Source: Dehalococcoidia bacterium (lineage in GTDB: Bacteria; Chloroflexota; Dehalococcoidia; GIF9; AB-539-J10). From it: 61,166 nt of DNA. A program made the translations under genes and the position numbers. The stretch lies in contig WJOY01000039.1 of the NCBI GenBank assembly GCA_009619075.1, forward strand, positions 1 to 61,166. Reading direction: 5' to 3'. Below are positions 22,037 through 46,896 of this stretch, in pieces (within the stretch, counting starts at the first letter, position 1; each line of letters starts with the position of its first letter). The notes beneath the pieces are model-generated. The model did not search any database. It worked only from the letters and a program-made list of their open reading frames with translations, and had not been told where the DNA came from.

Positions 22037-22141
22037 GTCATTCTGAGCCGAAGCCCTGAACGAAGTGAAGGGGAAGAATCTGACACACTCAAGATAAACT
22101 CCGCGACCGAAGAATCTCGGAGACTCTTCGCTCAGCGTGAC
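22037..22141. repeat. MITE-like composite repeat bounded by inverted GTCAnnCTGAG termini
   Basis: Left end GTCATTCTGAGCCGAAG..., right end ...CTTCGCTCAGCGTGAC (reverse complement GTCACGCTGAGCGAAG). Confidence 0.8.
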
Positions 22142-22358
22142 ATAGGGAGCGAATAGTTACAAATACTATACTCCATCCGTCCCAAAGCTTGCCGAGAATG
22201 GATTCCCAGTCTATCCAAGCCAGAATGCCTTGAGGGGTTGATTAAACTCAAGTCCGAAGGGCAGCTGATGTTGCTGGGCAAGATATTCGACTCCGAGGAA
22301 GATCAGGAAACATTTTGCTCATCTTTAAAGAATGCTTTATCGAGGGGAGGCTTTTGAA

Positions 22359-22484
22359 ATGAAAGAACTAGTTGAGAACTTAGCCAGGAAGGCTGGGGAT
22401 TTCTTGGTCGAGCATTTTCGCAAGGATCAGACACTGCTAAAGCTTCGAACTCAGCCAAGGATGCTGAATTTAATTTCCCTCTAA
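22359..22484 (+). pseudogene. N-terminal fragment of an inositol-monophosphatase (SuhB)-family gene
   Basis: MKELVENLARKAGDFLVEHFRKDQTLLKLRTQ... then stop after 41 codons; resembles IMPase N-termini by eye only. Confidence 0.4.
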
Positions 22485-22539
22485 CATGTGCCGTCGCGGT
22501 ATGGACATCAACAAGCAGCTTGCTATGGTAATTAAGCTA

Positions 22540-23136
22540 TTAGAAAGTATTCCAATGCAAAACTGATTCTAGTTTTCTCTTTGGAACATGAAGCACACCA
22601 CTTTTGTCTTTCCAATACTTCACGGAACCATTAAATGGCTCTGTAACCGGGTTTTCATCTGGATAGCCCAGGGCTAAAACCAGTAAAATTTCATAATTAT
22701 CAGGAATATTCAGTATTTCCCTCAATTTATCCCTATCAACACTGGCAATAGGACAGGAACCTATGCCCTTTTCCAGAGCTACCAGTATGATATTCTCCAT
22801 TGCTCCTCCAACGTCATATACCGACGATGGCACTCCGATATCCCTGTTTTTAAGTATGGTGATATACGCCTTTGGTCTTTTGCCCTCAGGTGGGGTACCT
22901 TCTGGGCTGATGTACGCTGCCCACTTTAATGTGGAGAATACCTGAGGTAGCATTTGATCATCATTCACAATCACATATTCTAAGGGTTGGAGGTTAGCTG
23001 CTGAAGGTATTAATCTGGCTGCGTCAACGCAGTTCTCCAAGATTTTGCGGGGGATGGGTATCTCCCTAAAGCGCCTGATTGAGCGCCGCTTGATAATCAC
23101 CTCATAGACACTCATATCGCTCCTTTTTTCAGGCAT
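22540..23136 (-). CDS. nitroreductase family protein
   Basis: 198 aa; IKRRSIRRF and SAANLQP motifs. Confidence 0.8.
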   Translation of the reverse strand: MPEKRSDMSVYEVIIKRRSIRRFREIPIPRKILENCVDAARLIPSAANLQPLEYVIVNDDQMLPQVFSTLKWAAYISPEGTPPEGKRPKAYITILKNRDIGVPSSVYDVGGAMENIILVALEKGIGSCPIASVDRDKLREILNIPDNYEILLVLALGYPDENPVTEPFNGSVKYWKDKSGVLHVPKRKLESVLHWNTF

Positions 23137-23346
23137 TGTAACACTCGAAACTAGGGCTCCTCAACCTAAATTAAAATACAGCATCCTCTCTATCCTGACA
23201 AAGGTTAACCTTGTAGCAATTCCATATTCTGTCCTAGTTTTAGCTTACATAGGCTAGGTTGCTTTGAGTGAAGGTTAATAATATTTCCAGGATTGCACAA
23301 TGAAACCAAGTATGGAATTTTGAGTCCCAAAGAAATTCCGGGACGC

Positions 23347-23627
23347 TCAGTCAATTTTGGCATGTATGCTATCGACCTTATCTTGCAGTTCGATTGTTAG
23401 GTGGATTGTCTTGGCTGCCCTCATATAATGATTAATCTCATCCAGAGATAGCTTTCGTCCCTTCCTATCCTTGAAGTATTTCTCCATTACCTGATAAGCT
23501 CCAATATGATATTCCCACACTTCCTTTGAGATGCCTTTCTAAAATCACCCGCCACATAAATCCTATGGATTTCCTTAAAGTAGCTACTTAAAATCCTCTT
23601 GAGTTTGTCTTTTTGTGTCTTTTTCAT
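23347..23627 (-). pseudogene. collapsed remnant of a type IIG/Eco57I-like restriction-modification methyltransferase (N-terminus fused to C-terminus, frameshifted)
   Basis: My translation: MKKTQKDKLKRILSSYFKEIHRIYVAGDFRKASQRK... then, in another frame, EVWEYHIGAYQVMEKYFKDRKGRKLSLDEINHYMRAAKTIHLTIELQDKVDSIHAKID*. Confidence 0.45.
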
Positions 23628-23768
23628 TTATTCCTTTTCAGGCAAAGGAGTATTTGTCTCAGCCAAAAGGCTGTAGAATGCAGCCCTTGGGATGAGCCAC
23701 TTTTTGAATAAGGGGTGCTATAGCAAAAGTTCGGGGTGAAGTCGATCTTAAGAAGTAAGATGGCTCTT

Positions 23769-24113
23769 TTAGCAAGTCAGATGCAAAGCCGCTATAACTT
23801 GCTCTTCCGCCTGAAATTTTTCGTTGTAGATTTTACATGCTTTATCAGTTGGCTCCGCTATTAGTTCTATATTATTGGAATTCAAGAATTCCTTTACCTC
23901 TTGTTTAACTTCAACGTAACCAAAAGCTCCGGTTCCGACTATTAAAACCTTCGGCGCAGCTTCAATGATTCCTTTTATATCTTCCATATTCAGCTCATGT
24001 CCTTCTTTACGCCACCAACCACTATTAACCTTGTTGGAAAAGATAATAACATCACTCATATATTTCTTACCGTTTATCACTACCTCTCCAAAGGAATAAA
24101 AATCAATACGCAT
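23769..24113 (-). CDS. Mth938-like (DUF498) domain protein
   Basis: 114 aa; FGEVVINGKKY...DVIIF...LIVGTG pattern. Confidence 0.65.
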   Translation of the reverse strand: MRIDFYSFGEVVINGKKYMSDVIIFSNKVNSGWWRKEGHELNMEDIKGIIEAAPKVLIVGTGAFGYVEVKQEVKEFLNSNNIELIAEPTDKACKIYNEKFQAEEQVIAALHLTC

Positions 24114-24215
24114 AGTTTTCTCCCTTGGGTAAACTTTAAGCTTATCATACCAGCCTGATTACCTATTTTTGAAGCACAAACCAATTGTTAATGCTCTATA
24201 ATATGTTGTAAGTGT

Positions 24216-24914
24216 ATGTCAGCAGATTTAGCCGAGAGAATCGAAACTTTAGCTCAATGGATGTTTGAGGCAAAGCATCTGGTTGTCTTTACAGGTGCTG
24301 GCATAAGCACAGAATCAGGTTTGCCTGACTTTCGCGGGCCCGATGGCATCTGGACACGCCAGGCAAAAGGACTGCCACCAAAGGCGCGACCATTTGGCTC
24401 TGTAGAGCCTAATGCGGGGCACCTGGCTATTGTGGAGCTACAGAAGTTGGGCAAGTTGAGTTTTCTTATCTCACAGAATGTGGATAACCTCCACTTGATG
24501 TCTGGGATACACCCTGATTTACTGGCGGAGTTACACGGGAATGTCACCAAATTGCGGTGCACTCGCTGTGAAGCTGAAGTGGACAAATCTGCCGGGCTGG
24601 ATAGATGCCCTTGTGGTGGCAAGCTGGTTTCCAGTGTGGTTAACTTTGGTCAGCCCTTGCCTCGAAAGGCACTGGCAGATTCCTATTGGCATTCGGAAAA
24701 CTGTGACCTTTTCATAGTCGCTGGCTCAAGCCTTGTGGTCACTCCGGCCGCTGACATGCCTAAAGTGGCTCTGAAATCAGGAGCCAAGCTGGTGATTATC
24801 AATCAGGGTGAAACGCCATTCGACCGGGTTGCTCATCTGAGATTCTGGGAAGGGATAAGAGAAGTCTTACCTCCAGCAGTGGCTCAGTTGAAGGAATTTA
24901 TGAGAGTATCTTGA
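24216..24914 (+). CDS. cobB: NAD-dependent protein deacylase (Sir2 family)
   Basis: 232 aa; GAGISTESGLPDFRGPDGIWT, QNVDNLH, zinc ribbon CTRC...CPCGG. Confidence 0.9.
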   Translation: MSADLAERIETLAQWMFEAKHLVVFTGAGISTESGLPDFRGPDGIWTRQAKGLPPKARPFGSVEPNAGHLAIVELQKLGKLSFLISQNVDNLHLMSGIHPDLLAELHGNVTKLRCTRCEAEVDKSAGLDRCPCGGKLVSSVVNFGQPLPRKALADSYWHSENCDLFIVAGSSLVVTPAADMPKVALKSGAKLVIINQGETPFDRVAHLRFWEGIREVLPPAVAQLKEFMRVS

Positions 24915-26106
24915 TTGGGCTGTTTTCCAGATGAGAGGTTATCTTACCCAAAAGCTTATCCACTCCCCAGCCTCTGGTGGCGGAGATAAGGACTATGTTT
25001 TTATTCGGCAGCACGATTTGTTCCTTAAGACAAGGAACAGCAGTTAGGATTTCTAGCTCCCCTTCACTGCTCAGGGCTAAATCCAGCTTGTTGAATACTG
25101 TGATTCTAGGTTTGTCTTTGAGGTTTAGCTTGTCAAGGATTTTCTCTACTGTGAGGCATTGATTGGCAGCGTTTTTGTGTGTTATGTCAACCATATGCAA
25201 GAGTAAGTTAGCTTCACCAAGCTCCTCCAGCGTGGCTCGAAAGGCGGCAACGATTGATGACGGCAGTTTTTGAATAAAGCCTACAGTATCAGTCATCAAG
25301 AATTGCTGACCATTGGGTAAGTTCAAACGGCGAGTCACTGGGTCAAGGGTAGAAAAAAGTTTGTCTTCTACAACTACACCAGCCTTACTTAGGGCATTAA
25401 ATAAGGTGCTTTTGCCAGCATTAGTATAGCCAACAAGGGCTACGATTGGCATTCCTATTTTCTTGCGTTGCTTTCTATAAAGAGCTCTGTGCTGCCTTAC
25501 CTCTTCTATTTCATGTTGCAGACGATTGATGCGCTTATGAATAAGGCGGCGGTCAGTTTCTAATTGCGATTCGCCAGGACCTCTGGTGCCGATACCTCCA
25601 CCAAGTCGCTCTAAATGGCTCCACTGCCCCACAAGCCGTGGCAGAAGGTATTGGTGCTGAGCTAACTCAACTTGAAGTTGTCCTTCATGGGTTCGAGCTT
25701 GTTTAGCAAATATGTCCAAAATGAGGGCTGTGCGGTCAATAACCTTAACCTGCAATAATTCTTCCAGGTTTCTTTGCTGCCGCGGTGATAGCTCATCATC
25801 AAAAATCACTGTGTTGTATTGAGCTTGCTCTTTGAGGCTAATTAGCTCGGCAATCTTTCCCTTGCCGATATAATAAGTAGGTGAAGGCGCTTTTAGTTTC
25901 TGGGTAAACATACCTACCACATTGGCGCCGGCTGTCCTGGCTAGATAAGATAATTCCTGTAGAGAATCAACAGCTGACCAACCATGGTTAGAGGCCTTGC
26001 TCTCTACTCCTACCAGGAATGCTTGTTCCTCAGTTTGGGTAGCGAAAAGCTCCTGCTTTATTTGTTCCCTCCTGTGCTTATCACCCTCATCCTTCGATAA
26101 ACTCAA
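24898..26106 (-). CDS. hflX: GTPase HflX
   Basis: 402 aa; GYTNAGKSTLFNAL, DTVGF, NKLD motifs. Confidence 0.9.
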   Translation of the reverse strand: MSLSKDEGDKHRREQIKQELFATQTEEQAFLVGVESKASNHGWSAVDSLQELSYLARTAGANVVGMFTQKLKAPSPTYYIGKGKIAELISLKEQAQYNTVIFDDELSPRQQRNLEELLQVKVIDRTALILDIFAKQARTHEGQLQVELAQHQYLLPRLVGQWSHLERLGGGIGTRGPGESQLETDRRLIHKRINRLQHEIEEVRQHRALYRKQRKKIGMPIVALVGYTNAGKSTLFNALSKAGVVVEDKLFSTLDPVTRRLNLPNGQQFLMTDTVGFIQKLPSSIVAAFRATLEELGEANLLLHMVDITHKNAANQCLTVEKILDKLNLKDKPRITVFNKLDLALSSEGELEILTAVPCLKEQIVLPNKNIVLISATRGWGVDKLLGKITSHLENSPIKILS

Positions 26107-26174
26107 GACAAGCTCTTAATCCTCTCATGTAATGAAGTTCCTTTTCCTTACAAGAGAGGAAGTTTACCTGGCAA

Positions 26175-27347: not shown

Positions 27348-27350
27348 TGG

Positions 27351-28277
27351 CTATTCTCCTTTAGTTAGATATTCCCCAGTGAAAACTTCTTCCACCGGGC
27401 CGGTGAGCAATACCTCCCCTACCCTATCCCACGATATAGTCAAGGTCCCACCTGGAAGTATTATGTCAACTATATCGCCTACATAATTATGTAGCTGGGC
27501 AGCTACAGCTATGGCACAAGCACCGCTACCACAAGCAAGGGTCTCTCCCACACCTCGCTCCCATACTCTAGCTTCTATCTTCCCCCTACTCAAAACCCTG
27601 GCTATCTCAAAGTTTGTCCTTTGTGGAAACAAGGGATGTCTTTCCACCTTAGGTCCCACCTCGGCTAGAGGAAAATTAACTACTGGCTCAGATACAAAGC
27701 TCACCGCATGGGGATTGCCCATGGATAAGAGGGATACTGATAGCTGATAGCTGTTAGTTGTCAGTTGATAGGTGATTACTGGAGACTGCTTCGCTTCGCT
27801 CGCAACGGCATCTGTGGTGAGGGTGACGGGAATTTGTTCTGGTTGGAATTGGGGCGTGCCCATGCTTACCTCGACTCGGCTCACTTTATTTCCTAACATG
27901 TACGCTTTAGCCTGTCTCATGCCCGATAACGTTTCTATCCTTAAATTTGTTGTACTAACTACGCCCTTTTCAATAGCATACTTGGCAAGACACCTTAATC
28001 CGTTGCCACAGGTCTCAGCCTCGGAACCATCGGGATTAAAGATGCGCATCTTTAAATCGCAATAGCTAGAATTCTGCACCAATATCAAACCATCGGCCCC
28101 TACGCCAAAGTGACGGTCACACATAGTTTGTGCCAGCTTAGCCCAATGAGATTCTTCGCGGAGTTTACTCTGAGCGAGATTCTTCGGTCGCTTCTCTCCC
28201 TCAGAAAGACAGGATGGGGCTCTGTCATCTATCAGAATAAAATCGTTTCCTGTAGCCTGGAATTTGGAGAATTTCAT
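27351..28277 (-). CDS. dapF: diaminopimelate epimerase carrying two in-frame repeat insertions
   Basis: 308 aa; MKFSKFQATGNDFILID, MCDRHFGVGADGLILV, ETCGNGLRC, LACGSGACA; insert peptides CLSEGEKRPKNLAQSKLREES and AVASEAKQSP. Confidence 0.9.
   Translation of the reverse strand: MKFSKFQATGNDFILIDDRAPSCLSEGEKRPKNLAQSKLREESHWAKLAQTMCDRHFGVGADGLILVQNSSYCDLKMRIFNPDGSEAETCGNGLRCLAKYAIEKGVVSTTNLRIETLSGMRQAKAYMLGNKVSRVEVSMGTPQFQPEQIPVTLTTDAVASEAKQSPVITYQLTTNSYQLSVSLLSMGNPHAVSFVSEPVVNFPLAEVGPKVERHPLFPQRTNFEIARVLSRGKIEARVWERGVGETLACGSGACAIAVAAQLHNYVGDIVDIILPGGTLTISWDRVGEVLLTGPVEEVFTGEYLTKGE
27781..27809 (-). repeat. degenerate hairpin-repeat unit inside dapF
   Basis: Minus strand GCCGTTGCGAGCGAAGCGAAGCAGTCTCC. 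Confidence 0.7.
28148..28213 (-). repeat. 66-nt composite repeat inside dapF
   Basis: Minus strand CCTGTCTTTCTGAGGGAGAGAAGCGACCGAAGAATCTCGCTCAGAGTAAACTCCGCGAAGAATCTC. Confidence 0.9.
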
Positions 28278-29251
28278 GCTATAAAGCCTCTTATTAGATT
28301 CTTCGGGGAGTTTACCCTGAGCGAGATAAGATTCTTCACTACGCTCAGAATGACAGGGAGCGAAGGGCTCAGAATGATAGACGACGGGCTGACATCAAAC
28401 CAATGGATTCTTTCATCGTCCAGATGAAACCAAGCATATTGATGACGAGCAAAGTGATGGGTTTCATACTTTATCTGTTCAATAGCTGCCGGCAAAGTCA
28501 ACTGGCCTTGAAGAAACTGGCCCACTTGCTTATAACCTATGCCCGACATAGAAGGCAAGGAAAAGCTATAACCCATTTTTACTAGCTCCTCTACCTCCGC
28601 AACTAATCCCTTTTGTATCATTTTATCAACACGCTGATCAATCCTATTATACAACTTGCTTCTTTCTACGGTTAAACCGATGATGCGGATAGGAAAACCT
28701 GGCGCCTCCTTGCGCCATAACTGAGAGGGAAGCTGCCCTGTCATGTGGTAAATCTCTAAAGCCCTGATGATACGGCGGATATTGCCAGGATGGATTTTGG
28801 TTGCGGCAAGAGGGTCGATTTGCTGAAGTTCTTTATAAAGCATATAGCTACCTTCTCGCTTCGCTCTGGCTTCCAAATCACATCTTAGTTTAGGGTTAGG
28901 TGGCACCTGGGGTATTTTCCATCCTTCTAATATTGACCACAGATAAAGGCCGCTACCACCTACCAATAACGGCAATTTGCCTTTTTGCTGGATAGCCTTG
29001 ATTGCCTCGGTAGCCAGTTGATGATACATAGCTAGGTTGAAATCTTCATCAGGGTTAACTACATCAATAAGGTGATGAGGGACTGATGCTCTTTCAGCTA
29101 AAGTGGGTTTATTGGTGCCGATATCCATATAGCGGTAAACCTGTCGGCTATCAGCGCTTACTATCTCTACCGGGAAATCTCGAGCTAAGTGTAGAGCAAG
29201 CTCGCTTTTGCCTACTGCTGTGGGACCAACGATGGCAACAAGGCATTTCAT
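28274..29251 (-). CDS. miaA: tRNA dimethylallyltransferase
   Basis: ORF 28274..29314 trimmed to MKCLVAIVGPTAVGKS (P-loop); C-terminal ~35 aa are repeat-encoded; stop overlaps dapF start (ATGA). Confidence 0.9.
   Translation of the reverse strand: MKCLVAIVGPTAVGKSELALHLARDFPVEIVSADSRQVYRYMDIGTNKPTLAERASVPHHLIDVVNPDEDFNLAMYHQLATEAIKAIQQKGKLPLLVGGSGLYLWSILEGWKIPQVPPNPKLRCDLEARAKREGSYMLYKELQQIDPLAATKIHPGNIRRIIRALEIYHMTGQLPSQLWRKEAPGFPIRIIGLTVERSKLYNRIDQRVDKMIQKGLVAEVEELVKMGYSFSLPSMSGIGYKQVGQFLQGQLTLPAAIEQIKYETHHFARHQYAWFHLDDERIHWFDVSPSSIILSPSLPVILSVVKNLISLRVNSPKNLIRGFIA
28296..28378 (-). repeat. composite repeat forming the miaA 3' end
   Basis: Plus strand AGATTCTTCGGGGAGTTTACCCTGAGCGAGATAAGATTCTTCACTACGCTCAGAATGACAGGGAGCGAAGGGCTCAGAATGAT. 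Confidence 0.9.
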
Positions 29252-29252
29252 T

Positions 29253-29280
29253 GGGGATTCTTCGCTCCGCTCAGAATGAT
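29253..29280 (-). repeat. hairpin-repeat unit bridging tpiA stop and miaA start
   Basis: Minus strand ATCATTCTGAGCGGAGCGAAGAATCCCC; the tpiA TGA stop lies in the CATTCTGAG head. Confidence 0.85.
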
Positions 29281-31308: not shown

Positions 31309-32373
31309 CTAGTAGTCGCACTCCATTAAAAAACGTGCTGCCTCGCTTAATGGAACTCGCCTGGATGGATCAAGACCAGTAGCTTCAAGCTTTGTCAAAG
31401 CTCGGTGATAATATTGTTGCTCCAAATCCTGGGCATAACCCCTGGCACCTGAACGATTGAGTATTTCTACCACTTCAGTTACATCCTCCACTTCAATGGA
31501 TTCCTGTGAGTAAAGCTTCTCAAGCCTCTGCTTATCTTTGCCCCTGCTGTTTTCCAATCCGTAAACTACCGGCAAAGTTTTCTTCCTGTGTAAAATATCA
31601 CCCTTTACAGACTTGCCAATTTTTTCCTCTGTTCCCCAAATGCCCAGTATGTCATCATGAATTTGATAAGCCATGCCCAAGTTTTTGCCAAACTCGTGGA
31701 AGTAGCTCACTATCCCCTCATCCTCTGTAACAAGGCATGCTCCGATAGAGGTTGATGCAGCCATTAATGCCGCTGTTTTCTTCGTTATCATTCTAAGGTA
31801 ATCTTCAGTGGTAACATCGCCACGAGCCTCATAGGCAATATCTAGATATTGGCCTTCACAAAGCTCTAGGCAAGCTTCGCCTAGCACTTGGATTGCTCGC
31901 ATAATTTTCGTCTCGGCTATCCCCCTCTCTCTCAATTTAAGCAAAACTAAATAAGCTAAGGCAAACATGGAATCGCCAGCATTTATAGCTTGCGGCTGTC
32001 CCCATAATTTCCATACAGTTGGGCGATGGTGCCGCTCACAGCTAGTGTCTTCAATATCATCGTGGATTAAAGAGAAGTTGTGAATGAGCTCTAAGGATAC
32101 CGCGGCAGGCAATATCTGTAACGCATTTCCACCTACCGCTTGACAGCTAAGAAGGCAAAGAACAGGGCGAGTAAATTTACCAGACTTCTTACCACTGGGA
32201 TGACCTTGTGCATCCTGCCAACCCAGATGGTATCGCAACATATCATAAAGGGCTGAAGGTTTACTACCAATAATTCTCTTTAACTCAGCCTCTACTTCTC
32301 TTCGGTAGGAGGTGTAACTTTCAGGCAAGATTTCATCTGTGCTTATCAAAACCACCTTTATATTAATGGCCAA
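31309..32373 (-). CDS. polyprenyl diphosphate synthase (trans-IPPS family)
   Basis: 354 aa (TTG start as listed); LIHDDIED and IHDDILG aspartate-rich motifs. Confidence 0.85.
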   Translation of the reverse strand: MAINIKVVLISTDEILPESYTSYRREVEAELKRIIGSKPSALYDMLRYHLGWQDAQGHPSGKKSGKFTRPVLCLLSCQAVGGNALQILPAAVSLELIHNFSLIHDDIEDTSCERHHRPTVWKLWGQPQAINAGDSMFALAYLVLLKLRERGIAETKIMRAIQVLGEACLELCEGQYLDIAYEARGDVTTEDYLRMITKKTAALMAASTSIGACLVTEDEGIVSYFHEFGKNLGMAYQIHDDILGIWGTEEKIGKSVKGDILHRKKTLPVVYGLENSRGKDKQRLEKLYSQESIEVEDVTEVVEILNRSGARGYAQDLEQQYYHRALTKLEATGLDPSRRVPLSEAARFLMECDY

Positions 32374-32417
32374 AGGGGCAAATTGTCAATAAAGCTAATT
32401 TAGAGCCTGTCTGTTTT

Positions 32418-32517
32418 GTCACCCTGAGCCGAAGCTCCGAGCGAAGTGAGGAGGCGGTGAAGGGTCTAAATTCTTCGCTACGCTCAGAATGACAGGAAGC
32501 GAAGGGCGCAGAATGAC
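32418..32517. repeat. MITE-like composite repeat (ACCCT/AGGGT variant) with inverted termini
   Basis: GTCACCCTGAGCCGAAGCTCCGAGCGAAGTGAGGAGGCGGTGAAGGGTC followed by inverted units ...CGCTCAGAATGAC and ...GCGCAGAATGAC. Confidence 0.85.
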
Positions 32518-32626
32518 AATTTGGAGTTGCTAGACGCTCTGCTAATTTAAAGCCTTGAAAAAGTCTCCTTATTGTAATATAATTAGCACTCTAACATTCA
32601 GAGTGCTAATTATTGGAGGTAATTAG

Positions 32627-32851
32627 ATGAATTGTGCTGTTTGCGGGAGTCCACTGCTTTTCGACAGGGTCGTTTTCCACTGTTCCTGTGGAGTTTTTGT
32701 GCATGCCTATTGCTGGGATAAGCATGTGTTGCAAGCCCATAAGCCGGCTTTCGAGGTAGGCACCGTTGATTTGAATAGTGAGTTTAAAGTAAAAGAGAGC
32801 AAGGTAGAGGAGGAAGCCTCAGATAAACAGGTAACACCGTCTATAGAATGA
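32627..32851 (+). CDS. small Cys/His-rich zinc-finger-like protein
   Basis: 74 aa; CAVCG...HCSCGVFVHAYCWDKHVLQAHK. Confidence 0.5.
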   Translation: MNCAVCGSPLLFDRVVFHCSCGVFVHAYCWDKHVLQAHKPAFEVGTVDLNSEFKVKESKVEEEASDKQVTPSIE

Positions 32852-32864
32852 AAGAGGAATAAAA

Positions 32865-33113
32865 ATGCCTACTTATCGATACCAGTGTGAGAACTGCAAC
32901 CGGCGATTTGAGCTCAGGCAAGGATTTAATGATAAACCAATAGTTGTTTGCCCTGTATGCCGCGGAGTTGCCCATCGCCTTTTTTCTCCCGTGCCTATCT
33001 TGTTTAAGGGGCCAGGGTTTTATGTTACGGATTCCAGGGAAGAGAGCAAAAAAAGGCTTGATGCTAAAGGGCCAAGGAAAAAAGAGATGGACAAAGGGAG
33101 CGGGAAATCATGA
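32865..33113 (+). CDS. FmdB-family zinc-ribbon protein
   Basis: 82 aa; MPTYRYQCENCNRRFE...CPVCRG (CxxC_CxxC_SSSS pattern). Confidence 0.75.
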   Translation: MPTYRYQCENCNRRFELRQGFNDKPIVVCPVCRGVAHRLFSPVPILFKGPGFYVTDSREESKKRLDAKGPRKKEMDKGSGKS

Positions 33114-33229
33114 AATGCCCTGTTTGTGGCAGGGAAGCTAGAACCCATATTTACCACTGTGCTAAATGCGGTGTTTATGTGCATGAAGAGTGCTGGCGAA
33201 AACATATTGCCCAAGCTCACAAAAAATAG
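33110..33229 (+). CDS. 39-aa paralogue of the 32627 zinc-finger protein
   Basis: My translation MKCPVCGREARTHIYHCAKCGVYVHEECWRKHIAQAHKK*; start overlaps the preceding stop (ATGA). Confidence 0.45.
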   Translation: MKCPVCGREARTHIYHCAKCGVYVHEECWRKHIAQAHKK

Positions 33230-33505
33230 CTTGTGCTTTTGCTCCATGCCTGTCAAATCATTTGAGACGGTAACCCAAGTTTAGGTTGCTGTGTCATAAT
33301 TCGGATTCAGCTCCTTCCACACAAAGGAGATTTCCTCCCTTGTCTCCCTTTCAAGAACGAGCCTATTTTAGGGGCTACTCTTTGACCCCAAAAGGTGTAA
33401 CGCCTCCGTCAGGTAACATGGCTGTTTGATTTTGCCTCAGACTCAAAATCAGACTCAAACTAGATTTGCCTCATTCGGTTTTCATGGTCTTCACCCCAAA
33501 GATTT

Positions 33506-33555
33506 TGTAGTGCGACCCTTTAGGGTCGTGCACGAGGCTAAAGCCGCGCACTACA
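33506..33555. repeat. REP/BIME-like doublet (two inverted GTAG-hairpin units)
   Basis: TGTAGTGCGACCCTTTAGGGTCGTGCACGAGGCTAAAGCCGCGCACTACA; near-palindrome centred on GTGCAC. Confidence 0.7.
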
Positions 33556-33601
33556 TTTCCAAACAGCCTCGGTAACATTTACCTTGAGGCAATCTGACCT
33601 A

Positions 33602-33631
33602 TTGACTAGTTAAAAGGTACCATTCTATAAT
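33602..33631 (+). promoter_or_regulatory. sigma70-like promoter candidate
   Basis: TTGACT, 18-nt spacer, TATAAT; about 165 nt upstream of the symporter start. Confidence 0.45.
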
Positions 33632-33794
33632 AGAGTATAGAGAGCCCGCTACTTATAGTGGACGAATTGAGCATAGCCGAAGGCGATACTGGAGACTGGT
33701 AGCAATGTCGGAAGGAGGTGGTGCTATGTAAAAAGAATGTATGCTGGGGAAGGGTGGAGAGCGCATTAACTTTTAAGAAAGGAGGTAATTAAAA

Positions 33795-35084
33795 GTGGCG
33801 GAAAGACGTAGAGGTGGTTATTTTGGTTTTCCCCTGATATATAAGATAGCGATAGGACTGGGTGTGGGGATTGTTGTGGGGATAATTGCTGGACCTGCCA
33901 TAGCGCCGGTAAAACCACTGGGAGATTTCTTTGTGACATTGCTTAAAATGTGTATCATGCCAATAGTCCTCTTTTCCCTTGTGGTAGGTGCAGCGAGTAT
34001 ATCGCCAGCACGCGGAGTGAGAATCGGCGTCAAGACGATAGTTTTTTACTTAGTAACTACATTTATTGCCGTCCTGATAGGTTTAGCTATAGCAAACCTA
34101 TTCAAGCCAGGATTGGGATTGGCACTTGCTGGAGAAGAGGTAGTACGAGAGGTAGCAGCACCGGCAATAAAAGATGTTTTGCTCGGGCTAATACCAAAGA
34201 ATCCCTTCGCGGCTTTAGCGGAAGGAAAGGTATTGCCCACAATAGTATTCGCTATACTGGTGGGAACAGCGTTGTCTTACCTCAAAGAGATGAAAGTTCC
34301 CAGAATCAGCGAAGCTGCCGACACTGTATTAAGGGTTTCTGACGGATTAGCTGAAGTGATGTATAAGTTGGTCAGCTGGATATTGGAGATTGCACCTTAT
34401 GGTGTATTTGCCTTGATAGCGGTAGTTGTTGGTACGCAAGGGGCAAAGGTTTTGGGTCCTCTGGGCGTTGTCACTGGGGTGGTATATTTAGGCCTCATTA
34501 TTCATTATTTCGTAGTCTACGGAGGAGCGTTAAGAATATGGGGCTTTAATCCGGCCAGATTTTGGCCCAGAGCTAGAGACGCCTCGCTTACAGCTTTTGT
34601 CACTAGAAGCAGCAGCGGAACTTTACCAGTTACAATGACCGTTGCTAGGGAAAAGCTAGGGATTGATAGAGGTATATACTCATTTACGCTACCACTTGGT
34701 GCCACTATAAACATGGATGGCACCTGTTTGTATCAGGCTGTTTGTGCCATGTTCATCGCCAATGCGGTAGGAATGCCCTTGGCAATAGGGGCACAGATGC
34801 TAGTTATGATTACAGCGGTTTTAGCCTCTATAGGAACAGCCGGAGTCCCCGGGGCTGGTGCAATAATGCTGCTCCTGGTTCTTGAGTCAGTGGGGCTACC
34901 TGTTGAAGCAGGAACATCCGTGGCGCTAGCTTATGGTATGATTCTGGGCATTGACGCCATACTGGATATGGGCAGAACAAGCCTGAATGTTACTGGCGAT
35001 CTGGCAGTGACTTCAATAATAGCGAAAACTGAGAACATGATTAATTTAGACTTTTGGCGTGGAGGAGCAAAAGCTAAGGCATAA
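33795..35084 (+). CDS. dicarboxylate/amino acid:cation symporter (DAACS, GltP/SstT-like)
   Basis: 429 aa (GTG start), multi-TM; FVTRSSSGTLPVT and ATINMDGT motifs. Confidence 0.85.
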   Translation: MAERRRGGYFGFPLIYKIAIGLGVGIVVGIIAGPAIAPVKPLGDFFVTLLKMCIMPIVLFSLVVGAASISPARGVRIGVKTIVFYLVTTFIAVLIGLAIANLFKPGLGLALAGEEVVREVAAPAIKDVLLGLIPKNPFAALAEGKVLPTIVFAILVGTALSYLKEMKVPRISEAADTVLRVSDGLAEVMYKLVSWILEIAPYGVFALIAVVVGTQGAKVLGPLGVVTGVVYLGLIIHYFVVYGGALRIWGFNPARFWPRARDASLTAFVTRSSSGTLPVTMTVAREKLGIDRGIYSFTLPLGATINMDGTCLYQAVCAMFIANAVGMPLAIGAQMLVMITAVLASIGTAGVPGAGAIMLLLVLESVGLPVEAGTSVALAYGMILGIDAILDMGRTSLNVTGDLAVTSIIAKTENMINLDFWRGGAKAKA

Positions 35085-35087
35085 TAA

Positions 35088-39642: not shown

Positions 39643-39676
39643 TCTACAGCGGCATGAAAGCTGATAAAATTGACTT

Positions 39677-40477: not shown

Positions 40478-41724
40478 AGAAAATAGCTATTTTAGGTTCA
40501 ACGGGTTCCATAGGGCGGCAAGCTCTAGATGTGATACGTGCCCTTTCTGCTAGATTCCAGGTGGTAGGTTTAGCTGGGGGTAAAAATCTCAAGCTTCTGG
40601 AAAAGCAAATAGCCAAATTTCAACCTGAGATGTTTTATTCCTCAGTCGAGCCTGACTTTACCTATAGAGGGGAATTCTTATCCATGGAACAAATAGCCAG
40701 CCATCCAGATGTTGATCTGGTCATCATAGCCACTTCAAGCAAAGCAGGGTTGTATCCTACTTTAGCAGCTCTAAAGGCAGGCAAAACAGTAGCTTTAGCC
40801 AACAAGGAAGTATTGATGATGGCGGGGGAAATTATCGTTCGTGAGGCTAAAAGCTACCAAGCTCAAATTCTGCCTATTGATAGTGAGCTTAGTGCTATCT
40901 GGCAATGCTTGCAAGGGGAGGAAAATAAACCACAAAGAATTTTTTTAACTGCTTCTGGTGGACCTTTCTACCACTATTCCCAGCCGGAATTAAGAAAAGT
41001 AACGGTAGAGCAAGCCCTTCATCACCCTACCTGGAAAATGGGGAGGAAGATCACTATTGACTCGGCCACGCTTCTGAATAAAGGAGCAGAGGCTATTGAA
41101 GCTCATTGGCTTTTCGCTATTCCTTTTGAGAGCATTGAGATATTAATTCATCCACAAAGTATCATTCACTCCATGGTAGAGTTTATGGACGGTTCAATAA
41201 AAGCGCAGCTCAGCTTTCCCGATATGAGGTTGCCCATCCAATATGCCCTTTGTTATCCTGAGAGGTTGCCCAATTCAGAGCTACCACGCCTCAACTGGAA
41301 CAAAATCCAGTCTCTAAACTTCGAGCCCGTAGAGCAAAACAGATTTCCTTGTCTTAAATTGGCGCTGGATGCAGGTAAGCAAGGAGGAACTTATCCTGCA
41401 GTGCTTTGTGCTGCCGATGAAGTGGCCGTAGGGTTTTTTCTTAACAAGCGTATAAGCTTTACTGATATAGCTAGAATAGTGCAAGAAACTTTGGAACAGC
41501 ATCGGGGCATTGCTCAGCCATCCTTGGAAGAAATTCTAATTGCCGATGCCTGGGCAAGGGAATATGTTGAGCGACTTTCCCTTTGTCATGGCAAGGCTTG
41601 TCCTGCCCCCGAGCCCTTCGCTTCCTGTCATTCTGAGGGGGCGAAGCGACCGAAGAATCTCGCTCAGGGTAAACTCCGCGAAGGGGAGGGAACTCGACGA
41701 AGCAATCTCAGGTCAGTGAGATAA
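40465..41724 (+). CDS. dxr: 1-deoxy-D-xylulose 5-phosphate reductoisomerase with repeat-encoded C-terminal extension
   Basis: 419 aa; ILGSTGSIG, LANKE, HPTWKMG motifs; the last ~45 aa (CHGKACPAPEPFASCHSEGAKRPKNLAQGKLREGEGTRRSNLRSVR) come from repeats. Confidence 0.9.
   Translation: MDRIKKIAILGSTGSIGRQALDVIRALSARFQVVGLAGGKNLKLLEKQIAKFQPEMFYSSVEPDFTYRGEFLSMEQIASHPDVDLVIIATSSKAGLYPTLAALKAGKTVALANKEVLMMAGEIIVREAKSYQAQILPIDSELSAIWQCLQGEENKPQRIFLTASGGPFYHYSQPELRKVTVEQALHHPTWKMGRKITIDSATLLNKGAEAIEAHWLFAIPFESIEILIHPQSIIHSMVEFMDGSIKAQLSFPDMRLPIQYALCYPERLPNSELPRLNWNKIQSLNFEPVEQNRFPCLKLALDAGKQGGTYPAVLCAADEVAVGFFLNKRISFTDIARIVQETLEQHRGIAQPSLEEILIADAWAREYVERLSLCHGKACPAPEPFASCHSEGAKRPKNLAQGKLREGEGTRRSNLRSVR
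41585..41709 (+). repeat. composite hairpin-repeat cluster at the dxr-rseP junction
   Basis: ...GAGCCCTTCGCTTCCT GTCATTCTGAGGGGGCGAAGCGACCGAAGAATCTC GCTCAGGGTAAACTCCGCGAAGG...CGACGAAGCAATCTC. Confidence 0.9.
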
Positions 41725-41727
41725 GAG

Positions 41728-43026: not shown

Positions 43027-44066
43027 CACGCCGCGTTTCTAAACCTGTGAGAATTGGCAGAGTAACTGTTGGCGGCGATGCCCCAGTTGTGGTGCAATCG
43101 ATGACCAAAACTGACACTCGTGATGTCTCAAGCACGATGAATCAAATTAAGCAGCTGGAGGATTGTGGTTGCGAACTAGTGCGGCTAGCAGTTCTAGATA
43201 AGGAAGCGGCGGAAAGCATTTCAGTGATAAAGAAGAGTGTTTCGCTACCTCTTATTGCTGATATTCACTTTGACTATCGTTTGGCTTTAGCTGCTCTGCA
43301 GGCTGGTGCCGATGGGCTTCGCCTTAATCCAGGCAATATTCGCGATAAAGAGCAAATCGCCAAGGTGGTAGCTGTGGCTAAAGAAAGGGAAATACCCATC
43401 CGAGTTGGAGTAAATGCCGGTAGTTTACCAGCGAACTTTGAGCTTGATGCTCCGCTATCTGAGCGGATGGTTAACATGGCATTGCAACAAATAAAGCTTT
43501 TGCAGAGCCTGGACTTTAATTTAATTAAGGTTTCTCTTAAAGCCTTTGATGTGTCCACTACCATTCAGGCTTACCAGCTAATTGCTGACAAAATACCTTA
43601 TCCTTTACACTTAGGTATCACTGAAGCGGGGCTTCCTCGATTTGGAGCTATACGCAGTGCTGTAGGCATTGGCATACTTCTTTATCAGGGCATTGGTGAC
43701 ACTATCCGTGTTTCTCTTACTGCTCACCCATGTGAGGAGGTATTTGTCGCCTATGAAATTCTAAAAAGCCTTGGACTTCGTCAGCGAGGGCCAACCTTGG
43801 TAAGCTGTCCTTCCTGCGGTCGAGCTGAAGTTGATGTTGTTACCCTGGCTGAAGCCGTGGACAAACATCTTCAAAAGATAACCAAGGCTATTAAAGTGGC
43901 AGTTATGGGTTGTGTGGTTAATGGTCCTGGCGAGGCTAGAGATGCTGATGTAGGCATTGCTTGCGGCAAGGGGAAAGGTGCTATATTTAGGAAGGGAAAG
44001 GTAGTAAGCACAGTAAAGGAGGAAAATTTCCTAGAAGCTTTAATGGCAGAAGTAGGAAAGGTCTAA
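43023..44066 (+). CDS. ispG: 4-hydroxy-3-methylbut-2-enyl diphosphate synthase
   Basis: 347 aa; SCPSCGR and GCVVNGPGEA motifs. Confidence 0.95.
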   Translation: MTRRVSKPVRIGRVTVGGDAPVVVQSMTKTDTRDVSSTMNQIKQLEDCGCELVRLAVLDKEAAESISVIKKSVSLPLIADIHFDYRLALAALQAGADGLRLNPGNIRDKEQIAKVVAVAKEREIPIRVGVNAGSLPANFELDAPLSERMVNMALQQIKLLQSLDFNLIKVSLKAFDVSTTIQAYQLIADKIPYPLHLGITEAGLPRFGAIRSAVGIGILLYQGIGDTIRVSLTAHPCEEVFVAYEILKSLGLRQRGPTLVSCPSCGRAEVDVVTLAEAVDKHLQKITKAIKVAVMGCVVNGPGEARDADVGIACGKGKGAIFRKGKVVSTVKEENFLEALMAEVGKV

Positions 44067-44068
44067 CT

Positions 44069-45103
44069 ATGGCAGAAGAAAAGGAAAAGCCGCTTACCCG
44101 TGATGATTTGCTGAAGCTAATAGAAGAAAACGGAGGAACAGCCGAAGGTCTTGACCTTTCAGAACAGACTTTTGTGGAAGCGATAGACCTTTCGGACTTA
44201 GACCTTCACGGGATTATCCTTAAGGATGCAAGATTTTCTACGCACTTTGAGGGTGACCAATTGTTGGGAGCTAAATTTGACGGGTCTAACCTTAATGGAG
44301 CCGACCTTCGTAGCATTAACCTTCAATATGCTCAGTTTAGAATGCTCAACAACCAACCCACATATTTACAAGCTGCTGACCTGAGAGGTTCACTCTTGTT
44401 AAATACTAATTTTCAAGGTGCAGACGTTACAGGCGTGAAATTTGGAGATCTAGCAAAAGCAGGAGGATATCTGGCAGCAATGTTGGATGATACTGACCTG
44501 CGGGGTGCAAAGCTATTTCGTGCAAACTTTAAGGGCTGCTATTTTTACAGCACTAAACTTGAGGGGGCCTTTATTCGTGGTGCTGATATTTTTGACGCTC
44601 ATTTGGAGGAAGCTGATTGGGGCAACTGTGTGATTGGGGAGGAGAAACGTGGCGACTTTTCCTCGGCAATGAACATCTATCGCTGTCTCAAGCAATGGTA
44701 TACCAATGCTGGTATGTATGATATTGCAGGTAAGTTTTTCTTTCGGGAGATGACAGCCCGAAGAAAGGCGCTAAAATGGCGGCCTAATCCCTTGCCGAGA
44801 ATCAGACAAACACTTTATGGACTTCTCTGCGGATATGGCGAAAAACCATGGCAGGTCTTCGCAAGCGCCACAGTGGTTCTATTCTGCTTAGCACTCGTCT
44901 ATTTCGCCATCGGAACTCTGACGCCTAACACTTTTTTGAACAGCCTTTACTACAGTGCCGTCTCTTTTACTGCTTTGGGCTATGGTAGTTGGGCACCACA
45001 GCCAACAGGCTGGGTAAAGGGGCTTGGAGCGGTTGAAGCCTTCCTGGGGGTTTTTATGATGGCATTATTCTTAGTGACTTTCATTAGGAAAATGACAAGA
45101 TGA
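44069..45103 (+). CDS. pentapeptide-repeat protein fused to a two-TM pore-loop channel-like domain
   Basis: 344 aa; A(D/N)LxG-type repeats over ~150 aa, then two TM helices flanking SFTALGYGSW (filter-like GYG). Confidence 0.7.
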   Translation: MAEEKEKPLTRDDLLKLIEENGGTAEGLDLSEQTFVEAIDLSDLDLHGIILKDARFSTHFEGDQLLGAKFDGSNLNGADLRSINLQYAQFRMLNNQPTYLQAADLRGSLLLNTNFQGADVTGVKFGDLAKAGGYLAAMLDDTDLRGAKLFRANFKGCYFYSTKLEGAFIRGADIFDAHLEEADWGNCVIGEEKRGDFSSAMNIYRCLKQWYTNAGMYDIAGKFFFREMTARRKALKWRPNPLPRIRQTLYGLLCGYGEKPWQVFASATVVLFCLALVYFAIGTLTPNTFLNSLYYSAVSFTALGYGSWAPQPTGWVKGLGAVEAFLGVFMMALFLVTFIRKMTR

Positions 45104-45120
45104 TTAGAGGTTAATTAAAA

Positions 45121-46896
45121 ATGCGTTTCTCTAAGCTTTTTGGCAAGACATTAAGGCAAGCACCTGCAGGAGCAGAGAGTATAAGCCACCGGTTACTGCT
45201 CAGGAGTGGCATGATTGCCCAGATAGCTGCTGGCATCTATTCCTATTTGCCCTTAGGCTGGCGAGTACTCAGAAAGATAGAGAGCATAATTAGAGAGGAG
45301 ATAGATAAAGCTGGCGGGCAAGAATTGATGCTGCCAGTATTGCAGCCCTTCGAACTATGGCAGCAATCAGGAAGAGATGTTTCCTTTGGCCAATCTCTGT
45401 TCACCCTGACCGACCGCAAGGAGCATAAATTAGTCTTAGGACCCACACATGAAGAAGTTATTACTGAGCTTGCTCATCGCTATGTGCAGAGCTACCGCGA
45501 TCTCCCTTTACTGCTTTACCAAATACAAACTAAATTCCGCGATGAGCCTCGCCCTCGTGGTGGATTACTGAGAGTCCGAGAATTCATTATGAAAGACCTT
45601 TACAGCTTTGATGTTGATGAGGCTGGTCTAGATGAAAGCTATGAGAAAATGAGCCAAACTTACAAGAATATCTATGCTCGCCTTGGTCTGCCAGCCTTAA
45701 TAGTGGAAGCTGACAGTGGTGCCATAGGTGGCAAGGAATCTCATGAGTTCATGGTCATCACTGAGACTGGCGAGGATGAGGTTATCTATTGCTCCAATTG
45801 TGGCTATGCCGCTAATGCAGAGAAAGCCCAAAGTGCCAAAGCGAGGATAGAGGATGTCATTGCGAGCCGAAGTCCTGAACAAAGTGAAGGAGCAGCAAAG
45901 CAATTTCTTCCTCTAGAAGAAATAGCCACGCCGCGTTGCAAAACCATAGAAGAGGTAGCTAGTTTTCTTGGCGTGTCAACGAATCAAACTTTCAAAGCCG
46001 TATTTTATTCCGCAGATGGCGAATTTGTCTTTGTCGTTATCCGAGGCGACTTAGAAGTGAATGAAACAAAGCTAAGAAATACGCTGAAGTGTTCCGAGCT
46101 TAGATTAGCTACTGAAGGCGAGGTAAGTGAGGCAGGCATAGTGGCCGGCTTTGCTTCGCCTATTGGTATAAAAGATGTCAAAATTGTTGCTGATGATTCC
46201 ATAACTTTAGGTGCTAATTTCATCGCTGGAGCTAATAAAGCTGGATATCACTTTAAGAATGCCAATTATCCTAGAGACTTTCAGGTTGACCTTATAGGTG
46301 ATATTGCACTGGCTCACCCCGGGGATAACTGTCCTAAGTGTGGTAGCATGTTGTCTTCTGCTCGTGGCATCGAAGTAGGACACATATTTAAGCTGGGCAC
46401 CTTTATCAGCGAAAAAATGGAGGCATTCTTCTTAGATCAAGAAGGTGTATCCAAGCCTATCGTTATGGGTAGCGATGGCATTGGATTAGGACGCCTATTA
46501 GCAGCCATAGTAGAGCAGAGCCATGATGATAAAGGTATTATTTGGCCTCTCTCTATTGCTCCCTACCAAGTTTATCTTTGCCCCCTTTATTTAGATAACA
46601 CCGAAGTTGCCCCCCTAGCTGAAAATGTATACCAAGAATTGGGAAAAACGGGAGTCGAAGTTCTTTTCGATGATCGTGATGAATCCCCCGGAATTAAATT
46701 CAACGATGCTGACCTTCTGGGGATACCTCTACGTCTAACCCTAAGCCCGCGCACTCTAAAAAGCCAAAGCATAGAGGTGAAATGGCGTGCCAAGAAAGAA
46801 ACTCAGCTTTGGCCATTAGAGAATGTGGCTGCTGAAGTTAATAGGCTACTAAGAAAAAAATTAGCTTCGCAAGGTTGCGCCCAGTTCTTGATGTAG
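45121..46896 (+). CDS. proS: proline--tRNA ligase with an in-frame repeat insertion
   Basis: 591 aa; bacterial-type ProRS with editing domain; insert peptide VIASRSPEQSEGAAKQF. Confidence 0.95.
   Translation: MRFSKLFGKTLRQAPAGAESISHRLLLRSGMIAQIAAGIYSYLPLGWRVLRKIESIIREEIDKAGGQELMLPVLQPFELWQQSGRDVSFGQSLFTLTDRKEHKLVLGPTHEEVITELAHRYVQSYRDLPLLLYQIQTKFRDEPRPRGGLLRVREFIMKDLYSFDVDEAGLDESYEKMSQTYKNIYARLGLPALIVEADSGAIGGKESHEFMVITETGEDEVIYCSNCGYAANAEKAQSAKARIEDVIASRSPEQSEGAAKQFLPLEEIATPRCKTIEEVASFLGVSTNQTFKAVFYSADGEFVFVVIRGDLEVNETKLRNTLKCSELRLATEGEVSEAGIVAGFASPIGIKDVKIVADDSITLGANFIAGANKAGYHFKNANYPRDFQVDLIGDIALAHPGDNCPKCGSMLSSARGIEVGHIFKLGTFISEKMEAFFLDQEGVSKPIVMGSDGIGLGRLLAAIVEQSHDDKGIIWPLSIAPYQVYLCPLYLDNTEVAPLAENVYQELGKTGVEVLFDDRDESPGIKFNDADLLGIPLRLTLSPRTLKSQSIEVKWRAKKETQLWPLENVAAEVNRLLRKKLASQGCAQFLM
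45856..45907 (+). repeat. long-form hairpin repeat (ATTGC/GCAAT variant) inside proS
   Basis: GTCATTGCGAGCCGAAGTCCTGAACAAAGTGAAGGAGCAGCAAAGCAATTTC. Confidence 0.9.

Follow-up and report, generated by a model that had tools for sequence, protein, structure and literature searches.

The DNA analysed here, referred to as the window, is a stretch of 61,166 nt from a Dehalococcoidia bacterium (assembly GCA_009619075.1, contig WJOY01000039.1). Between and within its genes, among them ribH, dapF, miaA, dxr, proS and pheT, the window carries approximately 17 loci of a short hairpin repeat with a 5' TGTC tag, located on both strands. The first-pass annotation had described three long-form copies of this repeat, each with two nested helices whose arms change in a complementary way. 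All three copies were found at the places given, and both helices are exactly complementary in each of them. The coordinates of copies 1 and 2 were right, while the end of copy 3, placed at 32466, lies 2 nt short of the true end at 32468; moreover, one base had been written twice in the transcript of copies 1 and 2, the true reading being GAGCCGAAG followed by CCCT and not GAGCCGAAGC followed by CCCT. The three long forms do belong to a large family of small dispersed hairpin repeats with co-varying stems, which resemble repetitive extragenic palindromic (REP) sequences.

Further copies were collected with the pattern GAGCCGAAG-N4-GA.C.AAGTGA, in which both stems were left free, using one genome per GTDB species. 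At least 116 loci were obtained; with the viral contigs and the window added, they amount to 871 kb and form the basis of the family-wide counts. Among the matches listed, the family is present in metagenome-assembled genomes (MAGs) of Chloroflexota, Desulfobacterota, Zixibacteria, Omnitrophota, Nitrospinota, Bacteroidota and Planctomycetota, each with lineage-specific variants. Contamination of MAGs is an unlikely source of this cross-phylum spread, as every lineage has its own stem and linker variants. The relatives compared with the window were the Dehalococcoidia MAG CSMAG_2455 (loci L073 and L106, about 96% identical) and the Chloroflexi MAG CG23_combo (loci L004 and L088, about 92–95% identical). 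A complete array, running from head-only units through a long form to a sub-unit, was also observed at positions 6830–6950 of the IMG/VR contig 3300013127_002344 (L002), which is catalogued as viral. The Rfam search returned only tRNAs at the gathering threshold and zero matches with E ≤ 1 in 21300–22200 or 32300–33800 of the window, and a literature search with the DNA strings and the repeat-encoded peptides found no paper describing the TGTC-tagged sequence family.

The analysis of about 160 distinct hairpins showed that the unit has a strict order: the 5'-TGTC tag, a 5-bp stem starting with A-T, a tandem G·A/A·G step, an upper stem, a loop and a 3-nt CTC-like tail. GTC is preceded by T in 167 of 182 units, by C in 14 and by G in one, and the tail is CTC in 110, CTA in 23 and CCC in 18 of them. 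The stem consists of nine stacked positions (ATTCTGAGC/GCGAAGAAT), with the conserved G·A/A·G at positions 6 and 7, where 5'-GA faces GA-3' in a Y-GA-R context. Position 1 is invariably an A-T pair, while position 2 is T-A in units of the ATTCT and ATTGC types and C-G in those of the ACCCT type. The upper stem comprises only 2 bp in some units (GC/GC, or AC/GT within the nested module) and is a nested hairpin of variable sequence in others, e.g., GGCAC/GTGCC, GCCCC/GGGGC, GCCGC/GCGGC or GGCTGA/TCAGCC, and two or more nested terminal pairs occur in 75% of 106 distinct upper parts vs. 12% of shuffled ones. Nesting extends to three stems, each bracketed by GA…GA, as in ATTCT-GA-CCCT-GA-CTCT-GA-AC-GAA-GT-GA-AGAG-GA-AGGG-GA-AGAAT.

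The 51 short forms with defined geometry contain 43 triloops and eight 4-nt loops, and many other units carry a nested hairpin instead. The triloops are GAA (21), GTA (5), GCA (5) and GGA (2), which gives G-N-A in 33/51, as well as AAA (7), and the four-base loops GTTA, GACA and GATA belong to the class G/A-N-N-A. We take the loops of the units to be of the DNA mini-hairpin type; in the work of Hirao and Yoshizawa, GCGAAGC is reportedly an extra-stable DNA mini-hairpin. The motif GARCRAAGTGA, previously regarded as a conserved loop, is indeed conserved but is itself structured as GA / RC / RAA / GT / GA. Its RC/GT segment is a 2-bp stem with an A-T or G·T pair at the position where short forms have G-C. 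On the complementary strand each G·A step is replaced by C·T, so only the TGTC strand can form this fold, and this strand-only pairing, as read from the sequences, argues for a single-stranded fold over a duplex palindrome. The module variants with CTCT and CTCC (window 32426–32438; L004 4113–4141) also contain a perfect 4-bp hairpin, GAGC-CGAA-GCTC, whose complementary strand reads GAGC-UUCG-GCUC with the stable cUUCGg tetraloop, an alternative fold competing with the inner helix.

Three copies alone are insufficient to show covariation, and the evidence comes from the enlarged set. The inner helix has four Watson–Crick pairs in 90 of 123 pattern matches. These are CCCT/AGGG (67), CTCT/AGAG (12), TCCT/AGGA (4), CCCC/GGGG (3), CTCC/GGAG (3) and TCCC/GGGA (1); with CTGC/GCAG (4), which is offset by 1 nt, there are seven compensated variants in all. 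About 14 obvious chance matches of the inner pattern are unpaired and serve as an internal control. The inner helix was scored on 39 distinct sequences with the chance matches kept in, and its covariation score of 0.359 vs. 0.199 for shuffled data was reached by none of the 500 shuffles, every slid-partner control being lower. For the outer helix, heads were located as GTCA-N4-GAG independently of the tails, and an exact complementary pentamer was found downstream of 189 of 330 heads vs. 71.4 ± 6.6 (maximum 92) when head identities were permuted 2000 times. The head-by-tail table is almost purely diagonal, with ATTCT (56), ATTGC (38) and ACCCT (24) followed by ATCCT, ACTCT, ATGCT, ACCTT and ATTCC, and the alternation of ATTCT/AGAAT and ATTGC/GCAAT noticed earlier in the short forms is real. 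RNAalifold applied to 15 full long forms recovered four helical segments, with 94.8% of cells paired and a covariation of 0.257 vs. 0.144 shuffled (0/500).

With more copies, the heads and tails therefore pair more often than independent variation would give, and the covariation scores beat 500 of 500 shuffles, in agreement with the first-pass annotation. Its description of two helices was incomplete, because a further 2-bp segment, GC/GC, makes a fourth helical segment. The claim that the folded hairpin and not the primary sequence is selected is supported in its first half, both helices being kept across many copies, lineages and stem variants and also at one orthologous coding site in proS, where head and tail change together. 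The second half is wrong, as the TGTC tag, the GA...GA positions, the GNA loops, GAGCCGAAG and the CTC tail are strongly conserved across phyla. The units of the window are listed in Table 1.

Table 1. Hairpin units of the TGTC-tagged family in the window.
Feature	Position	Strand	Composition	Setting
ATTGC short form	15455–15480	−		encodes the C-terminal end of ribH
Degenerate run of head units	19606–19669	+		between dcd and an RNase J-like gene
Array	21372–21488	+	two 24-nt head-only units, hairpin (ATTCT-GA-GG-GA-GT-AAA-GC-GA-CC-GA-AGAAT), sub-unit ending GCAATCTC	between convergent genes
Long-form copy 1	22037–22082	+	TGTC tag; outer ATTCT (22040–44)/AGAAT (22075–79); tandem GA..GA; GCCGAAG; inner CCCT (22054–57)/AGGG (22069–72); apical AC-GAA-GT; tail CTG	intergenic
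Sub-unit, then inverted short unit	22083–22141	.	CTCAAGATAAACTCCGCGACCGAAGAATCTC (+), then GTCACGCTGAGCGAAGAGTCTCC (−)	adjoins copy 1, tail-to-tail
Degenerate short form	27784–27801	−	…AVASEAKQSP…	in dapF; aligned to a gap of about 7 aa in a solved DapF structure
63-nt composite unit	28148–28210	−	SCLSEGEKRPKNLAQSKLREES	in frame in dapF; L004 orthologue has an extra net 27-nt insertion
Head-only unit, short form and sub-unit	28296–28378	−		3' end of the miaA ORF, abuts the dapF start
ATTCT short form	29256–29280	−		between tpiA and miaA
Long-form copy 3	32418–32468	+	outer ACCCT (32421–25)/AGGGT (32461–65); inner CTCC (32435–38)/GGAG (32450–53); apical GC-GAA-GT with a G·T pair	flanked by a divergent pair of promoter-like sites
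Short form and 24-nt head-only unit	32470–32517	−	GTCATTCTGAGCGTAGCGAAGAAT and GTCATTCTGCGCCCTTCGCTTCCT	tail-to-tail with copy 3
Array	41580–41710	+		last ~45 codons of the dxr open reading frame (ORF); ends 3 nt before rseP; kept in L106
Long-form copy 2	45856–45907	+	outer ATTGC (45859–63)/GCAAT (45900–04); inner TCCT (45873–76)/AGGA (45888–91)	in frame in proS
ATTGC short form	47769–47794	−	…LSLRAQRSNL…	in pheT; frame differs from the proS and nitroreductase copies
Mixed-orientation array	53920–54016	.		between tRNA-Val and an archease gene
ATTGC short form	56018–56043	+		intergenic, rtcB/nitroreductase-like gene
ATTGC short form	56280–56305	+	VIASEAKQP	in a nitroreductase-like gene; aligned to a 9-aa gap in PDB 3eo7

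Judged from its sequence, the long form looks like a short form with a mini-hairpin module of about 24–30 nt placed just after GAGC. The module reads CGAAG-N4-GA-AC-GAA-GT-GA-N4', and when the 24 nt CGAAG-N4-GAACGAAGTGA-N4' are taken out of long forms of the ACCCT type, what remains is GAGC-GCGA/GCAA/GTTA-GCGA, an ordinary short form whose loop is G-N-N-A. Within dapF, L004 carries the module (net 27 nt, in frame) exactly after GAGC and inverted relative to its host unit, while the corresponding site of the window is empty; the two genomes are about 92% identical across the region. The module is found in both orientations inside host units. Likewise, the locus 32470–32517 has no extra 28-nt sub-unit in the window, one in L073 and two in L088, and the intergenic site at 29256 carries different units in the window and in L004. 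Units thus occur singly, as tail-to-tail pairs and as mosaic arrays that differ between close relatives. These differences in the number of sub-units and in the presence of the module show that the arrays turn over quickly and in whole units.

Copies also lie inside coding sequences, including those of essential genes. In-frame copies are present in proS, pheT, dapF (twice) and the nitroreductase-like gene, which gained nine residues from the repeat, and units form the C-terminal ends of ribH, miaA and dxr. The proS copy encodes VIASRSPEQSEGAAKQF in the linker preceding the editing domain and aligns to a 13-residue gap in PDB 5znj and 2j3l. The two inserts of dapF (27351–28277), at 28148–28210 and 27784–27801, fall opposite gaps of roughly 18 and 7 residues, respectively, when aligned with PDB 9mro. 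The ORFs of miaA and dxr read through arrays, their Pfam domains ending at residue 297 of 346 and 367 of 419, respectively; their stop codons abut the next genes, dapF and rseP. These C-terminal tails within operons are encoded by the repeats. The ATTGC type is stop-free in all three sense frames, and its higher frequency inside ORFs (9/75 vs. 5/109 for ATTCT, p = 0.09) is suggestive only. For annotation, this means that the repeats lengthen or decorate the housekeeping proteins ProRS, PheT, DapF, Dxr, MiaA and RibH, and that they seed spurious ORFs and peptide motifs (VIASEAKQS, VILSEAKNL) in MAGs.

The comparison of 120 ProRS orthologues (79–94% identity) revealed six states at one codon position, which may be empty (RINSEAP, RANNEEP) or occupied by an ATTGC short form (VIASEAKQS), an ATTCT short form (VILSEAKNL), either of two long forms or a three-unit array. 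At the DNA level, head and tail agree throughout except for a single mismatch in L122, and the 3' junction does not vary. Whole units seem to have been exchanged there, rather than altered by stepwise double mutation. Such unit replacement inflates the apparent covariation: stem variants track subfamilies and lineages, and with the whole-unit swap at proS this means that independent compensatory events are far fewer than copies.

The same observations bear on a neutral explanation, in which nothing recognises the hairpin, the arms became complementary through template switching, fold-back synthesis, slippage or gene conversion, and covariation is a side effect of the mutational process. The observed differences of whole sub-units between the arrays of close genomes are what slippage or unequal exchange would give, and the tandem 24-nt head-only units, the stem variants that follow subfamilies instead of many independent double changes, and the joint swap of head and tail at proS all fit such an origin. 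However, the complements made by template switching would be perfect, whereas the non-complementary G·A/A·G steps have been kept at each level of nesting and across phyla, as have the unpaired TGTC tag, loops of the G-N-A type and the CTC tail. The same module is moreover found at unrelated sites and in different phyla with precise junctions after GAGC, and we regard the neutral origin as improbable.

The reading towards which we lean, with restrained confidence, is that of a REP-like, non-autonomous hairpin family that spreads via single-stranded DNA with the help of a structure-specific enzyme acting in trans. The family would both spread and turn over in this form. The enzyme would recognise the tag together with the hairpin, which would account for co-varying stems beside a fixed tag, G·A steps, loop and tail, and copy replacement or gene conversion between units would homogenise head and tail together. 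Sense transcription of a unit would place the same hairpin in mRNA, with possible secondary effects. The mobilising enzyme is inferred by analogy, from the tetranucleotide at the hairpin foot, the placement 3' of a fixed short sequence and the strand specificity, and the best analogy is an HUH/Y1-transposase-like protein. Y1 HUH enzymes act on substrates built in this way, with a tetranucleotide at the hairpin foot (PMC6006769).

It is worth noting that several results weigh against this reading. No Y1 transposase is encoded in the window, and all-against-all clustering of 712 ORFs of the loci revealed no gene family recurring beside the repeats. The sole Y1_Tnp gene in the 871 kb of repeat-bearing loci, at L080, is flanked by a different, GTAG-type REP; the tblastn search of the sampled loci used two consensus-like probes, and its negative result is therefore weak. 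The boundaries of the module are ambiguous by about 3 nt, an uncertainty that may hide a target duplication. The 4-bp and 5-bp stems contain G·T and A·C mismatches in similar numbers and therefore bear no independent mark of the folded strand, and an excess of G·T over A·C is seen only in the 2-bp apical stem (6:0). The predicted stability is ordinary under both DNA and RNA parameters: the nearest-neighbour z-scores of the three copies are +0.93, −0.05 and −0.12 for DNA, none of them significant, and +0.74, −0.98 and −2.43 for RNA, the last being that of copy 3. The folding energies, whose comparison with dinucleotide shuffles had been proposed as a check, are thus unremarkable (z from +0.93 to −2.43). 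The energy models may under-credit sheared G·A pairs and GNA loops, and the case for structure rests on covariation, not on stability. Finally, isolated copies are biased towards the sense orientation, with 23:8 in intergenic regions (p = 0.011) and 19:3 in ORFs.

The Y1_Tnp gene at L080 is a RAYT-like ORF at 6984–7433 (−) (PF01797, E = 3e-11). The surrounding region (L080 6800–7565) contains the GTAG-tagged REP hairpins GTAGGACCGAGGCTTCAGCCTCGGT and GTAGCTGTGGGGCTTTAGCCCCACAA on either side of the ORF and represents a separate REP/RAYT system beside the TGTC family in a Dehalococcoidia MAG.

The sense bias would also be explained by an RNA role or by selection on transcripts. Under such an explanation the hairpins are selected mainly as RNA and, where transcribed at the ends of genes or between the genes of an operon, shield upstream mRNA from 3' exonucleases or guide its processing, a role earlier proposed for the E. 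coli REPs and many CGTC and GTAG REPs; many REPs are, in the view of Di Nocera et al., transcribed (PMC3733652). In keeping with it, most units of the window lie on the strand of the local genes and many copies are located directly 3' of coding regions. Moreover, the two nested helices as well as the apical 2-bp stem are recovered in the RNA minimum-free-energy fold of each of the three copies, and the apical pair is G·U in 11 of 39 distinct modules. However, when all complete units in tandem gene contexts are counted, 48 have the same and 33 the opposite orientation, and mixed clusters are divided 26:26. The module occurs either way round within host units, and copy 3, to judge from the two divergent promoter-like sites around it, is probably untranscribed. 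The RNA z-scores are weak in two of the three copies, and the loops are G-N-A or G-N-N-A, which points to DNA mini-hairpins, and not the RNA-typical GNRA or UNCG. Selection on RNA also leaves the nested insertion, the turnover of arrays and the colonisation of coding sequences unexplained. We consider it unlikely as the main explanation and cautiously favour a single-stranded-DNA-based origin of the family, with possible secondary RNA effects.

The reading of the units as intrinsic terminators was rejected: the window has 20 terminator-like sites vs. 19.6 expected, and none is on a hairpin unit, the lone marginal 5-bp match lying within the sub-unit at 22083–22141. The units are followed by no T runs, the CTC tails leading into varied sequence. 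The reverse complement of tag and head (TGTCAT) is ATGACA, which resembles a −35 hexamer and is used by two promoter-like matches, at window 22013–22041 (−) and 28350–28378 (+); units could thus donate outward-facing promoters.

The nearest described class is the CGTC/TGTC-tagged REP superfamily, although membership in any of the four published CGTC families is not claimed as proven. Among the members of this superfamily, described by Di Nocera, De Gregorio & Rocco (2013), are dRS3 of Neisseria as well as RPE-4 and RPE-6 of Rickettsia, and TGTC is a published variant of its CGTC tag, as is CCTC (PMC3733652). Its members have a stem of 8–9 bp with A-T residues at the first and second positions, a loop of 4–5 nt and a 3-nt unpaired tail with the consensus CCA, and they form predominantly head-to-head dimers, tail-to-tail ones being rare; intragenic copies are known, some in tRNA synthetase genes, and there is no dedicated transposase (PMC3733652). 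The family of the window agrees with this class in the tag. It resembles it in part in the stem, which has about nine stacked positions and, in the ATTCT and ATTGC types, an A-T then T-A start (ATTC…GAAT), and in having a conserved 3-nt unpaired tail. Subfamilies differing in the stem, in-frame intragenic copies that include tRNA synthetase genes and occurrence in several phyla are common to both as well, and no dedicated transposase was found for the TGTC family in the window or the sampled 871 kb. The family differs in that the stem is broken by the conserved tandem G·A/A·G, the loops are of 3–4 nt or are replaced by whole nested hairpins, and the tail is CTC. Complete units at most 60 nt apart form 36 tail-to-tail, three head-to-head and one head-to-tail pair, and arrays are frequent. 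Moreover, of the host phyla, only the Bacteroidetes are on the CGTC list of that paper, from which Chloroflexota, Desulfobacterota, Zixibacteria, Omnitrophota, Nitrospinota and Planctomycetota are absent (PMC3733652).

Within this class, dRS3 (ATTCCC-N8-GGGAAT) lies in mosaic NIME arrays (PMC1797815; PMC3733652), for which a role as targets of filamentous prophages has been proposed. The units resemble dRS3 with its CGTC/TGTC tag and form NIME-like mosaic arrays (PMC1797815, PMC3733652), the window has two tyrosine-recombinase ORFs, and one copy of the family is on contig L002, catalogued as viral. However, neither recombinase ORF is adjacent to the repeats, one being Xer/integrase-like and beside tRNAs and the other truncated. 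No mobile DNA was seen integrated at any unit, and the attC core motifs (GTTRRRY / RYYYAAC) are absent from the unit sequences. An equivalent role for the TGTC units is therefore very improbable. The first recombinase ORF, at 11068–12006 (−), is full length and stands beside a tRNA-Pro/Gly/Met cluster; the second, at 59957–60565 (−), retains a Phage_int_SAM_4 N-terminal domain at the low-GC (39%) end of the window, which may be the edge of a mobile or integron-like region.

The REP, BIME and REPIN elements of E. coli and Pseudomonas, associated with RAYT (TnpA_REP), are, like the TGTC units, short imperfect palindromes that carry a conserved tetranucleotide at the 5' end; both kinds also form mosaic clusters and inverted pairs, lie at gene ends, turn over between relatives and offer a plausible single-stranded DNA substrate for a Y1 HUH enzyme. 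Their tag, however, is GT[AG]G and not TGTC/CGTC, and they are usually specific to a species or genus, whereas the TGTC family is common to several phyla. No cognate RAYT is evident for the TGTC family in the sampled loci, where the L080 gene is flanked by its own GTAG REPs. Identity with the GTAG REP/RAYT system was rejected on the same two grounds, the tag and, within the sampled loci, the other repeats around the L080 ORF.

The RPE elements of Rickettsia are likewise palindromic repeats placed in frame in housekeeping genes, at loops or linkers, leaving the gene intact. The classic RPE-1 is about 100–150 bp long, whereas the TGTC units measure 24–63 nt and are also abundant in intergenic regions, and the hosts of the window family are free-living, not obligate intracellular. 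The subterminal hairpins of IS200/IS605 elements and their miniature derivatives have a guide tetranucleotide at the foot of an imperfect hairpin and are strand-specific. The foot tetranucleotide and the strand specificity recur in the TGTC family, and its module sits 3' of the short fixed GAGC with no clear target duplication; unlike IS200/IS605, the family showed no transposase gene in the loci searched and has no left-end/right-end pair, the unit being a single hairpin. Mycobacterial interspersed repetitive units (MIRUs) are tandem units of 40–100 bp in operons, read as ORF extensions that abut the next gene. The TGTC repeats within operons resemble them in this respect, but MIRUs are without this hairpin architecture.

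Two further identities were rejected. Integron attC sites (57–141 nt) do not match units of 24–63 nt with TGTCA…T-CTC ends, no RYYYAAC…GTTRRRY and no cassettes. CRISPR arrays were excluded as the tandem 24-nt units abut without spacers and the units are dispersed in both orientations.

The TGTC family is not categorically new; it is a well-defined and widespread system for the question of how orphan REPs spread. The origin and spread of CGTC/TGTC-tagged REPs are unexplained, and no transposase has been linked to the class (PMC3733652). The family offers several handles on this question: a strict grammar of tag, G·A steps and G-N-A loops with freely co-varying stems, a module of 24–30 nt caught present and absent, six states at one proS codon position and variants particular to lineages of several phyla. 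With these handles, a search for the missing enzyme by phylogenetic profiling is feasible, and the biophysics of DNA vs. RNA folding can be studied on unit oligonucleotides such as d/r(TGTCATTCTGAGCGAAGCGAAGAATCTC). A bolder proposal, which we put forward tentatively and consider doubtful as a whole, is that the TGTC hairpins are an undescribed, structure-defined mobile family in at least seven phyla. Such a family would nest within itself 3' of GAGC in either orientation, use sheared-G·A helices, enter essential genes in frame and spread via single-stranded DNA by a conserved enzyme, which could be a new HUH-type protein, another structure-specific nuclease or a universal host factor. If true, the CGTC/TGTC "orphan" REPs would gain a tractable system for finding their mover.

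Three other stretches of the window were recorded. The region 57918–58040 contains a different GC-rich, repeat-like sequence (GGGGATATGCGAAGCCC…GCGTAGCCGCATATCCACC…GAGCCGAAGGCGAGGCAAGGAGCGAAGCGACGCAG), in which only the words GAGCCGAAG and GCGAAGCGA are common with the family. Between ispG and proS, about 1 kb (44054–45117) with a pentapeptide-repeat/ion-channel ORF (44069–45103) is missing from the 95–96% identical L106. The 1.2 kb at 32520–33795 have no long ORF and no Rfam match and are partly diverged in L088; a strong promoter-like site at 32555–32583 (TTGAAA-17-TATAAT, 11/12) is followed by the hairpin GCACTCTAACATTCAGAGTGC, and the region may encode an unannotated small RNA or a leader.

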